This document shows, one piece after another, positions 1 through 4,635 of a stretch of 5,077 nucleotides of DNA. A program made the position numbers and the translations under genes. Where the stretch lies: the IMG/VR virus record IMGVR_UViG_2681813201_000009; one strand, 5' to 3'. The notes under the pieces were generated by a model that ran no database searches, was not told where the DNA came from, and saw only the letters and a program-made list of their open reading frames with translations. The stretch's first letter is position 1. The number at the start of each line of letters is the position of its first letter. Source of the DNA: a virus. Taxonomy: Duplodnaviria; Heunggongvirae; Uroviricota; Caudoviricetes.

Positions 1-3000
1 TTTTGACAATATCGCCTTCAATCTGGTTGGCTGACAGTTTCCCCTTAATCTGACAGTTCTCATTAATCGTGACGTTGTTGAGCGTCCCTGAGTTCGCATT
101 CACACTGCCACTGATATCCGCATTTTTCGCCGTCAGTCGCCCGTCCGGCGTCAGGGAAAATGCCGGAGGATTGCCGGATGACGTGATACTCACCGCAAAC
201 AGCCGCTTCAGGAACACATCGTTCATGAACAACTGATTCCCCTGCGCCACAAATAACGGCGTGCTGTTGCCGTTCTCCGGATTTATCATCGCGATACGGT
301 CAGCCAGCAGCAGTATGTTGCTCAGTGGCTGGCCATCAGTATCCTCAATCCCTGCACCAATCCCGGCCACATAGGGAATGCCGTCTTTCGTTTTTTGAAC
401 CTTCAGCATGTACAGCGCAGCCAGGTCATCATTTGTGTCCTTCTGCACGCGCTGTATCTGCTGAATGGTGGCGCTCTGGTCTTCCAGCGTTTTACTGACC
501 GTCTGTGTGATTTCATTGCGGGTTTCGGTGATGGAGGTCTTCATCTCCGCCATCTCATCCGCAAGCTGGCTGTTATCTATCAGCTCCCACAGCCCCTGAG
601 CCAGATGCAGTTTTCCTATTTTTTCCCGAAACAGCCCCAGATACCCTTCTGCATCATTGCTGGCCCGTCCACTGGCTTCCACAAAAGCAGATTTACCCAC
701 CAGGTTGACGCTGCGCACATAAAACCAGAAATCCTTTCCGGGCTTAATGTGCGGACCGGAGACACTCCACTGACTGCCGGTCCCCAGATAACGGGCAGAG
801 GTTTCCACCTGTGCGGCGTCTGCAATTTTTGCCTCCGAAAACCAGAACTCAAACTGCACCGTCGGGTCATAAATGGTCAGTTTCGGGACTGCCGTTATCT
901 GAAAATACCCCGGCGTCAGTTCAACACCGGCAGGCGCTGCCGGTGCGTTAATCCGGAACGTGGTGGTGGCGGGTTCGCCCTGCTGGCCATAGCTGTTAAT
1001 CGCCCTGACTGTCAGGGTGTATTCCCCGAGAGGCAGGCCACTGAAACGGTGCTCCGTATCGGCAGTGATGGCGGTGGTCACCAGACGGCTGTCTTCTCCG
1101 CTTCCGCTGGTCAGGCGCAGACTGAAGCGCACACCCTTCACCACCCGCGGCGTGTCCCATTTCGCCTGTGCCAGATACTGACCGTCAGCCGCGCTCACCT
1201 CCACCGTCAGGTGCTGCACAGCCGGCGGGATGACGCTGTTCAGCGAACCGGACAGTGGCTCAAAGCTGGCCCCGTTATCCACAATGGCTTCTTTTTCCGG
1301 TACGTGCTGCACCGCCGTGATGGCAAAGGTGCCGTCCGTGTTTTCCCGGATGGAGACACAGCGGAACAGGCGACGACGCAGTGACGGCAGGGAGAGTCCC
1401 CATACACCGTATGTCTCCACACCATCAGGCAGGGTGCTGACCTGTATCCGGTCCGGCGCGGGGTGTGCGGTGATGTCCACACTCACCGGCTTACCGCTGC
1501 CGTTAATCAGGTTCACCGTGGCGGCACCTGTCTCCGGCAGGGTCACCTCACGGTCCAGCGTCAGGGTGCGGGTGGCAGCATCAATGGACAGGACACGTCC
1601 GCCGGTCAGGGTCCCGGCATAGTCATTATCACAGATTTCAATAATGTCACCGGGTGTGTGCCGCAGCCCCTGAGACCCGAGCGTGAAATCCACCGTCTGC
1701 GTTTCCAGCAGTTCGGTCTTTATCACCCACAGTCCGGCACGGTGGGCCTGACCGCGGCTGGTACAGCCGAACGCGTCCATCTTCAGCAGGTTGCGTCCGT
1801 AGCGCAGTATGGCTTCCGGGTCTTCCACCAGTTCCGTGGAGGTCTGCCAGCCGTTCTGCGGGTCGGTGTAATTCACCTCCACCGCCGTGTGGCGGTCCTT
1901 CAGGGCGCTGAAGCTGTAGCGGAACCCCACGCCGTTATCATCCACCACCACATCGCTGTTGGTGTACGGCAACACCACATCCGACGGACGGTCCTGAACG
2001 AACGTCAGCGTCTGGCCGTTCCATACCGGCATACAGCGCATCGCCGAGCAGAAATCACTGAGAACGTCCCACGCCTTACGCTGTTGTGACAGGTACGCAT
2101 TAAAGGTCATCCGCGGCTCTGTCCCTCCGAAGCCGTCCGGGACACGCTGGTCACAGTACTGCCCGATGGCATACAGCGCCCACTTGTCCACATCCGCGGC
2201 CCCCAGGCGTTTTCCCATGCCGTAGCGCGGGTGAGTCAGCATGTCCCACAGGCACCAGGCCGGGTTGTTGCTGTATGCCGGTTTCAGGCTGCCGTCCCAG
2301 ATGCCGCTGTACGTGCGTTTTTCCGGGTCATAGTTTGACGGTACCTGAATGATGCGACCGCGGATATGGTAGTTCACCGTCATCTGCTGGCCGCCGAACT
2401 GCTCCGCATCCACCTGCAGCCCCACAATGGCCGTGTTCGGGTAGCACTGTTTCACATCGATGATTTCGGTGTATGACGACCAGAGCGTCTTATTCTGCAG
2501 CTGGTCCGTGGTGCTGTCCGCCGTCTCCCTGACCATCCGGATGTTAAAGGGGCGGGGAGGCAGATTATCCAGAATCACCGAAGCGAGGAACTGTGAGGTG
2601 GTCTTGCCGTTAATGGTGACATCCTTTTCCGTCACCCAGTTACCGTTACGCTGCAGCTGAATCAGCAGGCGGACGGATGCCGGGTTACGGTCACCCTGTG
2701 AGGTGGTCTGCACCAGTGACTGCACCCCGAAGGTGACCCGCAGGCGGTCAATGTTCGCGGACGTAATGGTGCGCGTCACCGGCTTTGCCTTCGTCACTTC
2801 CACGCCCAGTGCGGTTTCAGAGCCGGATGACTCAAAACCTTCCGGCGGTGTCTGCTCCTGCTCCCCGGCGCGCCAGACCGCGGTCACACCGTGTATCACG
2901 GGATTGCCGTCCGTGTCCGTCAGTGGGGTTTTGTTCACCAGAATACTCTGCAGCCCCTTCACCGGACCTTCAATCGGCCCTTCACCAATGGCGTCAATCA

Positions 3001-3076
3001 CGCTCATCATCTGCGTGGACTTAAGATTGTCCTTTGCCTCTACCGGCGTGTGCCCCTTGCCGCCCCCTTTACCCAC
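1..3076 (-). CDS. J: Host specificity protein J / central tail fibre (tail tip), N-terminal ~1025 codons; the C-terminal receptor-binding end lies beyond position 1
   Basis: Hand scan of the minus-strand frame (plus-strand triplets starting at positions congruent to 2 mod 3) from 2 to 3076 found no TTA/CTA/TCA, i.e. no in-frame stop. The N-terminus reads (V/M)[37 protein letters not shown]... and the window-edge end reads ...[21 protein letters not shown]; both resemble lambda J as I remember it ([24 protein letters not shown]... and ...ENCTINGTLRAEKIVGDIVK). Start is GTG at 3076..3074, with an in-frame TGA upstream at 3152..3154 and no in-frame ATG between. It is missing from the ORF track because there is no stop inside the window. 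Confidence 0.9.
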
Positions 3077-3080
3077 TCTG

Positions 3081-3092
3081 TCCCCCTCTCCT
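3081..3092 (-). promoter_or_regulatory. Shine-Dalgarno region for J (minus-strand AGGAGAGGGGGA, 4-11 nt upstream of the GTG start)
   Basis: The reverse complement of 3077..3093 is caggagagggggacaga, immediately followed by GTG. Confidence 0.5.
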
Positions 3093-3116
3093 GTCTGATG
3101 TCTGAATCTGTTTATG

Positions 3117-3150
3117 CCAGAAAACAACAGGCACCCCGGAGGGTGCCTGT
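3117..3150 (-). terminator. Candidate rho-independent terminator on the minus strand (10-bp GC-rich stem, 4-nt loop, then U-rich tract)
   Basis: Plus-strand 3127..3136 acaggcaccc and 3141..3150 gggtgcctgt are perfect reverse complements around loop cgga. On the minus-strand RNA the hairpin is followed by UGUUUUCU (plus 3117..3126). It begins 1 nt after the stop of the small ORF (3152..3154). There is no T-tract on the plus side. Confidence 0.45.
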
Positions 3151-3151
3151 G

Positions 3152-3271
3152 TCATGACGGAATAAAATTTCTGAAACTCTTCACATTTCCGGCAATTGCC
3201 TGTAGCCGCAATAATGACGCTGCATTACTTTTTTGATGCCTGAAAAATAACTCCATAACGTTAATCTTCAT
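3152..3271 (-). CDS. Small hypothetical protein, 39 aa (MKINVMELFFRHQKSNAASLLRLQAIAGNVKSFRNFIPS), in an AT-rich I-J insert; moron candidate
   Basis: ATG at 3271..3269 is preceded by GGGAGAG (plus 3276..3282) with a 4-6 nt spacer. 39 sense codons end at TGA 3152..3154, which directly abuts the terminator hairpin. Local GC is about 38% (50/130 counted for 3151..3280) against visibly GC-rich flanking genes. It is below the length cut-off of the supplied ORF track. No homology is recognised; a short ORF in AT-rich DNA can arise by chance. Confidence 0.35.
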   Translation of the reverse strand: MKINVMELFFRHQKSNAASLLRLQAIAGNVKSFRNFIPS

Positions 3272-3279
3272 CGTTCTCT

Positions 3280-3317
3280 CCCGCAGCTCCGCTAACTCTG
3301 CGGGATTTTTTTATTTT
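3280..3317 (+). terminator. Candidate rho-independent terminator on the plus strand (antisense to the late operon)
   Basis: Stem cccgcag (3280..3286) and ctgcggg (3298..3304) flank an 11-nt loop, followed by atttttttatttt (3305..3317). On the minus strand the same hairpin is preceded, not followed, by the A/T run, so it would stop only rightward (plus-sense) transcription. It lies between the I stop and the small-ORF Shine-Dalgarno. Confidence 0.4.
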
Positions 3318-3994
3318 CATCCCCGCCCGATAACCACCACTTTCCCGTCTCCGCCCTCATCACGGGTGCTGATGTCCTGGGATATCCGTCGTGAACCAAC
3401 CAGCATTTCACCATAAGGCACCGGCATCGGGTTCCCCTGGGCAATCATGTTATCCAGTGACGAAAAATACGTGTTCTGTTTACCGTTATCCGTCGCCCTG
3501 TACTCCGGTGTTTTTGCCTTCGGTGCCAGCATCTGGGCCACACCGCCCAGTATCATGCTGGCACCCAGTGAGAACAGCATCGTGGTGGCAGTCAGCCCTC
3601 CGGCACTCAGGGCTGCGCCCCACAACGCCATCGTTGCGCCGGCGGTGAAGAAAGAGCCCACGATGGCTGCTGCCCCCAGCACAATCTGCAGTCCGCCCTT
3701 TCCGGCCCCGGCCAGTCGCGGCACAATATGGATGACCGCCCCCTCACCCAGAGGTTCGTGAAGACGGGCGTACACCGCCTCCGGTGCCGTGTCCTCACCG
3801 CGAATACGTATCTGGTACCAGCCTTCGTTCATCTGACGGCGGAATCCCGGCATCTGCAGCGACAGGGCACGGATGGCTTCCGCTGCCGTGTTCACGTACA
3901 GGCTGAGGCGGCGGCCAAATCGTTGCAAATCCCCGTGAAGGCAGATGCGTGCCAGTGGCGGTGACGCCAGACAGAATGCGTTCGTCGTTGCCAT
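3317..3994 (-). CDS. I: Tail tip assembly protein I (N-terminal ubiquitin-like beta-grasp region, Gly-rich hydrophobic middle, C-terminal domain)
   Basis: ORF track 3317..3994 (-), 225 aa. N-terminus MATTNAFCLASPPLARICLHGDLQRFGRR... and C-terminus ...GEMLVGSRRISQDISTRDEGGDGKVVVIGRG resemble lambda I as I recall it. A GGGAGAGG Shine-Dalgarno (plus 4006..4013) sits 11 nt upstream of the ATG. Stop is TGA at 3317..3319. Confidence 0.9.
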   Translation of the reverse strand: MATTNAFCLASPPLARICLHGDLQRFGRRLSLYVNTAAEAIRALSLQMPGFRRQMNEGWYQIRIRGEDTAPEAVYARLHEPLGEGAVIHIVPRLAGAGKGGLQIVLGAAAIVGSFFTAGATMALWGAALSAGGLTATTMLFSLGASMILGGVAQMLAPKAKTPEYRATDNGKQNTYFSSLDNMIAQGNPMPVPYGEMLVGSRRISQDISTRDEGGDGKVVVIGRG

Positions 3995-4635
3995 TTTTCA
4001 GAATACCTCTCCCGTTTACTCAGTTGTTCAGGCAGATGGTGAAGCAGTTCACCGTTGCCGCAGTATATGGCGGCATGATTGGCCACCGATGCGCCAAAGC
4101 AGCACAGCAGGATATCGCCCGCCTGTGCAGAGGACAGGGGCACCCGGTAAAAACCAGTCGCCGCCATATTGTCCAGGTAAAGGTTCTGACCGTTGCGCCA
4201 CCAGTCATCCTCACGCACAAAATCCGGCAGCGTTATCCCCGCCAGATGGTATGCATCCCGGAACAGGGTGTAACAGTCCGTCACCCCGTGCTCAAAACGA
4301 CGCCCGGTCAGGTGCGGCACACAGCGGAATTTGTGAATTTCCCCCCGGCAGACCAGCCACCAGGGCAGGGCACTCTTTATCTGCAGCCGCCGGTCGGCCT
4401 CGCTCAGCCAGGGCAGACCACCAGGGTGGCTGTGAACCAGCGCCACAATCTCCCCCTGCATCTCTGCCTGCAGCCAGTCTTCCGGCGCAATACGAAAATA
4501 CGCCTCCGGCTCTGCGGAGATATTCACGCAGGGCTGGTACCGTTCGCCCTCCGGGGTGCCTATCACGAAGCCGCACGACTCCGCAGGCGCACACCGCCGG
4601 GCATGCACCAGAATCGCTGATTCAGTCTGTGTCAT
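3892..4635 (-). CDS. K: Tail tip assembly protein K (JAB/MPN-like domain with JAMM motif plus NlpC/P60-like domain), 248 aa
   Basis: This is the MTQTES... portion of ORF-track entry 3892..4896 (-). The start ATG is at 4635..4633, 10 nt after the L stop; the upstream 87 codons of the track ORF overlap L out of frame and are not taken as coding. A JAMM-type motif HSHPGGLPWLSEAD (H-x-H-x7-S-x2-D) is present, followed by NlpC/P60-like Cys (DCYTLF) and His (NHAAIY) signatures. The 3' end overlaps I by 103 bp. Confidence 0.88.
   Translation of the reverse strand: MTQTESAILVHARRCAPAESCGFVIGTPEGERYQPCVNISAEPEAYFRIAPEDWLQAEMQGEIVALVHSHPGGLPWLSEADRRLQIKSALPWWLVCRGEIHKFRCVPHLTGRRFEHGVTDCYTLFRDAYHLAGITLPDFVREDDWWRNGQNLYLDNMAATGFYRVPLSSAQAGDILLCCFGASVANHAAIYCGNGELLHHLPEQLSKRERYSEKWQRRTHSVWRHRHWHASAFTGICNDLAAASACT

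Follow-up and report, generated by a model that had tools for sequence, protein, structure and literature searches.

Why should a hairpin followed by a run of T residues, arranged as a transcription terminator on the plus strand, sit at the very end of a gene that is read from the minus strand? The question is raised by a 5,077-nucleotide stretch of phage DNA, analysed at its full length and referred to here as the window. It comes from the tail-tip region of a lambdoid prophage of EHEC type, and genes L (partial), K, I and J are on its minus strand. Tail assembly gene I occupies positions 3317..3994, and is identified by a match to Pfam Lambda_tail_I (E = 1.6e-15) and by the annotations of related records. 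The 5' part of J, the tail tip and host specificity gene, fills positions 1..3076. It begins with a GTG codon at 3076-3074, encodes Pfam GpJ domains, and in the window runs uninterrupted by stop codons for at least 1025 codons. The I stop codon is TGA at 3319-3317. The gap between I and J is 240 nt (3077-3316), compared to only 60 nt in lambda, and the hairpin is found at its I end.

Our answer is that the hairpin and its U-run very probably terminate an antisense small RNA (sRNA), and supply the hairpin-plus-poly(U) 3' end to which Hfq binds. Note that Hfq-binding modules need such an end, according to a paper that cites Otaka 2011 and Ishikawa 2012. The sRNA at the hairpin is already known; the same sequence was detected in 2014 and a homologue from EPEC was validated in 2021. 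Published experiments, with identical or homologous sequence, show that the RNA exists, the strand it comes from, its size, its Hfq dependence, and its many RNA partners. Our own analysis shows the anatomy and conservation of the terminator, the structure of the module around it, and the homology. The exact start of the RNA, its seed, and a trans mode of action are deduced. Our additions are the placing of EcOnc22, EcOnc23 and EcOnc24 in the PasB family, a module anatomy with a variable putative seed, and arrays of up to four modules. The original prediction had offered an antisense RNA as one option, and this option holds; a trans-acting, Hfq-dependent sRNA was not recognised. That an antisense sRNA gene was correctly predicted from a terminator seen in the raw sequence makes the hairpin a useful positive control.

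An intrinsic terminator on the plus strand abuts gene I

The plus strand at positions 3279-3317 reads tCCCGCAG-ctccgctaact-CTGCGGGa-tttttttatttt. The terminator hairpin (3279..3305) consists of an 8-bp stem, in which 3279-3286 pairs with 3298-3305, and an 11-nt loop (3287-3297). It is followed by the T-run, T7 A T4, at 3306..3317, and the RNA's 3' end would be expected within 3306-3312. The stem is G+C-rich, with 6 G-C pairs among the 8, and at least seven U residues form the 3' end, as is characteristic of an intrinsic terminator. In the minus-strand sense, AAAUAAAAAAA comes before the palindrome and GAGAACGAUG after it, and there is no U-run. The T-run adjoins the I stop codon, and its last T is the one base common to both. 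Direct reading, folding and a terminator scan thus agree with what had been described at the outset: a T-tract on the plus strand only, the place of the hairpin, and its abutment to the I stop.

Folding of positions 3272-3313 with ViennaRNA gave the 8-bp stem and 11-nt loop at -13.2 kcal/mol (z = -3.33), and none of 200 shuffled sequences was as stable. The same stem was retained when the longer segment, 3222-3313, was folded (-20.3 kcal/mol, z = -3.89). The terminator scan, covering 2900-3500, found two sites where 0.3 +/- 0.6 were expected from shuffles, and the plus-strand hairpin is one of them. Note that the scan gave another register for this site (5 bp, 3288-3304). Both the folding results and the comparison of variants point to the 8-bp register instead.

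Across 25 distinct variants, 96.9% of cells in the stem alignment were compatible with pairing and four pairs were invariant. At pair 5, C-G is replaced by U-A in two variants and by U-G in a third; the U-G form pairs in plus-strand RNA only. Conversely, the loops vary freely, with more than 10 different versions of between 3 and 11 nt, while the T-run is conserved. Measures of covariation were not above controls, and only one pair has changed on both sides, because the stem hardly varies. Judged from the alignments, support for the predicted terminator is a stem that is conserved while its loop varies freely, rather than covariation. These pair counts come from an alignment of the terminator only, and not from the full-length alignment. 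For the latter, of 31 sequences, RNAalifold returned no consensus structure, as the most diverged variants have their 5' arm wrongly placed by MAFFT. Of the 31, 25 variants were folded and, in all 25, the minimum-energy fold contained the terminator and left the region upstream open. Mean unpaired probabilities in this upstream region were 0.46-0.87 across the folded variants.

The identical sequence encodes an Hfq-bound RNA in EHEC

A 281-nt query spanning the gap matched 147 phage records in all, with 100% identity to VT1-Sakai, CP-1639 and Stx2a_WGPS6. The sequence of NC_049945 is also identical to the window here. Using a 221-nt query, matches were found in 750 of 5426 complete E. coli genomes, at a median of 3 places per genome; the sRNA module is widespread. 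In particular, E. coli O157:H7 Sakai has the same gap (3077-3316), base for base, in its prophages Sp11, Sp14 and Sp15. Table S2 of Tree et al. 2014 (PMC4104026) lists a plus-strand Hfq-CRAC peak for each of these prophages: EcOnc22 (Sp15), EcOnc23 (Sp14) and EcOnc24 (Sp11). The northern probe, GGGAGAGAACGATGAAGATTAACTGATGAGTTA, is common to all three EcOncs, and the EcOnc22 row alone has entries for northern analysis (~85 nt) and for the delta-hfq strain ('Destabilised') (PMC4104026). The first 23 nt of the probe are the window minus strand from 3282 to 3260, and all three Sakai copies match alike. The rest of the probe has 1 substitution and 2 indels compared to the sequence. Since the probe is minus-strand sequence, it detects plus-strand RNA immediately upstream of the hairpin.

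The printed EcOnc22 peak is at 2902714-2902774 (PMC4104026). Note that the EcOnc coordinates in Table S2 belong to an older version of the Sakai genome, and lie ~136-146 nt below those of NC_002695.2 around 1.9-2.9 Mb. The shift was calibrated using AgvB1, a 60-nt sRNA of known sequence (+136 to +146), and the EcOnc42 and EcOnc04 probes agree. After correction, the EcOnc22 peak would fall within window positions 3236-3306. If the coordinates are taken at face value, EcOnc22 is instead placed at 3100-3160, on the other hairpin in the gap. This placement was dropped after calibration of the shift with AgvB1 and three probes.

Read totals for EcOnc22, EcOnc23 and EcOnc24 are near-equal, which is consistent with multi-mapping to identical copies. 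As the three Sakai copies are identical, expression is not assignable to any one of them. The EcOncs and the RNA of the window are the same gene; sequence and strand are alike, and there is no sequence difference. The published entry consists of a CRAC peak, the size seen on the northern and the effect of hfq loss, without RNA ends, promoter, seed, targets or a link to PasB.

The J gene of Sp15, and that of Sp14, is annotated in Sakai as two overlapping CDSs (e.g. ECs_2943 / ECs_2944), while J is a single frame in the window. In a naive ungapped comparison of window positions 1886-4386 with Sp15, 94 positions were mismatched; for J, window positions 1-3076 were compared with NC_002695.2 2899218-2902690. 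The split J in Sakai, and the scattered differences, indicate that the window comes from a close relative of Sp15 and not from Sp15 itself, despite the identical I-J gap.

PasB of EPEC is a homologue at the same site

In EPEC strain E2348/69, PasB is an 83-nt RNA encoded by the minus strand (1466343-1466261) of prophage PP6 (Pearl Mizrahi et al. 2021, Table S6, PMC8550237). It was verified by northern analysis with probe AATCCCGCAGTGATCGCGGAGCT, which is minus-strand sequence of the homologous hairpin. The same study (PMC8550237) recorded 37 RIL-seq interactions for PasB, ranking it 15th in the EPEC network, and chimeras with many unlinked RNAs. In cells lacking hfq, PasB was down by 2.4-6.8 log2 units (PMC8550237). 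According to the RefSeq annotation, the PasB coordinates sit between a tail assembly gene and gpJ, antisense to both. PasB aligns to window positions 3237-3312; its published 3' end corresponds to 3312, and its 5' end, defined by read coverage, to 3237. A blastn search of a phage collection with PasB gave 81.7% identity over 86% of its length (E = 1e-9). In NC_049945, PasB matches at one place only, 48933-49002, which is window 3243-3312. A preprint by Zhu, Shabalina and Storz (2026; 10.64898/2026.05.13.724894) describes PasB as embedded in a phage structural-gene operon, and NC_049945 is one of its three representative phages.

PasB and the window RNA share the I-J site, the antisense orientation, and a 7-bp CCCGCAG/CTGCGGG stem core followed by A and T7. 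Upstream, they share the position of the -10 element, a GCGTTA start motif, and the conserved core. In contrast, the body of the window variant is 7 nt shorter and its loop is different. The PasB promoter is also nearer consensus (TTCACA-16-TATAAT, compared to TTCCGG-17-AATAAT in the window). Within the core, which is AACTCCATAACGTTAATC in the window and AACTCCTTCACATTGATC in PasB, several positions differ; hence, the target set of the window variant may differ too. On comparison of sequence and position, EcOnc22/23/24 of EHEC and PasB of EPEC are one sRNA family at one conserved site. The equivalence of EcOnc22 and PasB is not stated in the two Pas papers: the preprint does not contain the term 'EcOnc', and Table S6 of the 2021 paper gives PasB no EHEC homologue. 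The experiments with EcOnc22/23/24, and those with PasB, bear out the rightward antisense transcript that had been proposed to start in the insert and end at the hairpin.

Putative promoter, body and proposed action of the sRNA

The sRNA gene occupies plus-strand positions 3222..3312 if the 5' end is placed from the promoter, at ~3222 (91 nt). Placed from the PasB alignment, the 5' end is at 3237 (76 nt). Compared to these lengths, the EcOnc22 northern signal is ~85 nt, and the 5' end is uncertain by ~15 nt. The RNA may also be processed within the U-run. The putative -10 box (AATAAT, 3210..3215) is a hexamer conserved in position across related modules. The candidate -35 element, TTCCGG at 3187..3192, is weak and is separated from the -10 box by 17 nt. 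In a consensus promoter scan that covered 2900-3500, no site had as many as 9 of 12 matches. Given the poor -35 element, and the lack of a match in the scan, the promoter call rests on the positionally conserved -10 hexamer and on homology. A GCGTTAC-type start motif is found 6 nt after the -10 box, so the start is expected near G3222. Further upstream, a conserved A/T-rich block, GGAATAAAATTTCTGAAACTCTTCACATTT (3161..3188), is invariant in alignments; it is part of the repeated module described below, and heads every module of the tandem arrays. The section at 3161-3177 is possibly placed like an UP element.

Just 5' of the terminator is a conserved, mostly unpaired core (3249..3278), made up of AACTCCATAACGTTAATCTTCAT and a pyrimidine stretch. 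This is the probable seed and Hfq-contact region. Rfam cmscan searches of the whole window, with E <= 10, found no relevant family, and returned only two chance snoRNA matches elsewhere.

We propose that a sigma-70-type promoter inside the insert, with AATAAT at 3210-3215 as its -10 element, would start RNA synthesis near 3222, or at 3237 if PasB homology is the better guide. The resulting RNA of 76-91 nt would stop in the U-run, at ~3306-3312, and antisense transcription would so be kept out of I, K and L. Hfq would then bind and stabilise the sRNA, which would most likely pair with mRNAs in trans, through the open stretch at 3249-3278. We infer action in trans from the RIL-seq partners of PasB. 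Note that termination is the ordinary role of an sRNA's own terminator. Hence, a device just to block antisense transcription, as raised in the original prediction, is superfluous as a separate explanation. The same prediction had allowed for a tiny plus-strand gene. This is not what the sequence holds: the RNA has only a 4-codon ATG frame, with no Shine-Dalgarno sequence, and the frame is absent from PasB.

A conserved module that can form tandem arrays

We scanned viral contigs for the invariant block TCATGACGGAATAAAANTTCTGAA, and obtained 120 loci with 164 module instances, representing 70 distinct modules. Each module starts with the block AATAAAATTTCTGAA..TTCACATTT, and a -10-like hexamer is found ~20 nt further on. 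The hexamer is present in 63 of the 70 distinct modules (TATAAT in 24, AATAAT in 16, TATCAT in 12, CATAAT in 8, GATAAT in 2, and TATAAA in 1). In 59 modules it is at index 30, and a (G/A)(C/G)GTTAC motif is found 6 nt later. After this start motif come a U-run and a variable body, the conserved core AACTCC..TTAATCTTCAT, the stem CCCGCAG/CTGCGGG, and A followed by T7. Loops differ among the 70 distinct modules, while the positions of the -10 box, the start motif, the core and the stem are kept. A contig scan with a 17-nt pattern, CTGCGGGATTTTTTTAT, yielded chance matches in unrelated phyla only.

For 112 evaluable loci, we counted one module in 95, two in 6, three in 2, and four in 9. Most prophages, including the one in the window, therefore carry a single module. 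The arrays share the promoter block and the frame of the terminator, and include two module classes with a diverged stem. They occupy the J-I gap and consist of 2-4 diverged PasB/EcOnc22-like modules, with a period of ~230 nt. Each module of an array has its own upstream block, -10 box, GCGTTAC motif and terminator; the body and seed differ. Four modules are present at loci L108, L114, L118, L120, L035, L059, L063, L064 and L080, three at L029 and L058, and two at, for example, L126, L103, L011 and L037. Tandem Repeats Finder did not detect the four modules of the L108 array, as divergence between the copies is too great.

In the 2026 preprint, repeated acquisition, and not tandem duplication, is given as the origin of multiple pasB copies, and the minimum pasB-pasB distance is 28 kb (10.64898/2026.05.13.724894). 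Given this distance, and the proposed repeated acquisition, the tandem arrays appear to be undescribed. We offer, as a tentative idea that is more likely wrong than right, that the I-J gap is a cassette site, at which sRNA modules have been duplicated and diversified into a small library of Hfq-dependent regulators within the tail operon. During lytic growth, the RNAs might also act in cis on the late I-J transcript.

Alternative roles for the hairpin and its RNA

On the minus strand, the sRNA module overlaps an open reading frame (ORF) of 39 aa (3152..3271), with a Shine-Dalgarno-like sequence, GGGAGAG, 6 nt upstream of the ATG. The ORF is intact in the window. It bears on an alternative in which the RNA is a cis-antisense regulator, pairing with the late I-J mRNA to trigger processing, as OOP does, and perhaps blocking translation of the ORF. 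The RNA is complementary, along its whole length, to the late transcript in the I-J gap, and covers the Shine-Dalgarno sequence and first 12-17 codons of the ORF, while a terminator-like hairpin closes the unit on the minus strand. Moreover, ~47 of the 120 related loci have the ORF intact, at 38-41 aa and with the same residues at its N and C termini; in two loci with upstream extensions it has 69 and 55 aa. However, 69 of the 120 have no intact ATG-started ORF in that frame, the PasB locus of E2348/69 among them. Several variant groups have ACG in place of the start codon or lack it altogether, and the body has indels whose lengths are not divisible by three. In E2348/69, the TATAAT box of the sRNA is in the ORF region, and we take the TAA held by its complement as the putative interrupting stop. 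The conserved ends of the peptide coincide with nucleotide constraints on the plus strand, namely the core of the sRNA and the upstream promoter block found at the head of each tandem-array module. The peptide is not hydrophobic and belongs to no Pfam family; its single PHROG match is at chance level (E = 0.26). Furthermore, over 130 nt separate the RNA from the ribosome-binding site of J, and PasB forms its chimeras with many RNAs that are unlinked. We consider a cis-antisense role improbable, and note that it would be compatible with action in trans. The appearance of a Shine-Dalgarno sequence and an ATG is the complement of the pyrimidine-rich, CAU-containing core of the sRNA. Hence, the suggestion that the stem modulates translation of the small ORF is not supported. 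We judge the ORF to be non-coding or not conserved; its translation in the window variant itself is possible. A type I toxin-antitoxin pair was also considered, and was rejected on the loss of the ORF from the same 69 loci, the lack of hydrophobicity, and the lack of a Pfam family.

Two further alternatives were weighed. In one, the palindrome acts in the late mRNA, after the I stop, as a stabiliser or translational coupler, and the plus-strand T-run is incidental. The palindrome is perfect, so the stem also forms in minus-strand RNA, and the I-J gap of lambda likewise has a hairpin. Conversely, the T-run is conserved on the plus strand only, and the variant class with U-G at pair 5 would lose that pair in the late mRNA. 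The lambda hairpin corresponds to window positions 3127-3150 and not to the plus-strand terminator, and the plus-strand RNA has been seen experimentally. We regard such a minus-strand element as very improbable. The other alternative is a pure insulator, with the hairpin only halting stray antisense transcription into I, K and L, and the short transcript a functionless by-product. While the terminator is exactly at the end of I, every module has a dedicated and positionally conserved -10 box, a start motif, and a conserved unpaired core. The RNA is abundant, Hfq-bound and Hfq-dependent, and PasB is the 15th ranked member of its network, with 37 interactions. Multiplication of modules into arrays of up to four would also be needless for an insulator, and we find this explanation scarcely credible. 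An Hfq-dependent antisense sRNA, with its own terminator, is the reading that we prefer.

The hairpin with a counterpart in lambda is a separate feature. It is terminator-like in the late-mRNA strand (3117..3150, minus), and has a 10-bp stem (3150-3127) followed by TTGTTTTCTGG. While it flanks the sRNA module, it forms no part of the sRNA. The hairpin at 3127-3150, with UUGUUUUCUGG after the stem, is ~40 nt upstream of the J start and folds at -27 kcal/mol (z = -4.25). Lambda has its hairpin, AAACCGCCTGCGGGCGGTTTTG, at the same position and in the same orientation within the 60-nt gap. Among variants of the hairpin, we found one U-G-compatible change per strand and one full compensatory change. 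In our reading, the I-J junction had this hairpin first, and the sRNA module (~3155-3316) would be an insertion between the hairpin and the end of I. Its possible roles include attenuation, with read-through by Q-modified polymerase, and that of an element for mRNA processing or stability. Between this hairpin and the J ribosome-binding site is a short repeat of variable number. The heptamer TGTCTGA (plus-strand sense) is present twice in the window, at a site (3091-3105; minus-strand sense TCAGACATCAGACA) just 5' of the J Shine-Dalgarno sequence. There are three to five copies in related loci, for example L106, L016, L083, L019 and L064.

Comparison with known systems

AgvB and AsxR (Rfam RF02702 and RF02703) resemble the window RNA in being short, Hfq-bound sRNAs, encoded at moron-like insertion points in EHEC lambdoid prophages. 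Unlike the window RNA, they are found downstream of PR', near the stx and lysis genes, rather than within the tail operon. GcvB and FnrS are the RNAs that they sponge. Identity with either was rejected, given their location at the PR' moron site and the absence of an Rfam match in the window at E <= 10.

The OOP RNA of lambda is also a short phage RNA, which is transcribed against an operon of the phage and stops at an intrinsic terminator. Its overlap is with the 3' end of cII, and its action, via RNase III, is in cis. The window RNA differs in that it overlaps intergenic sequence only, and its homologue, PasB, has many trans partners in EPEC.
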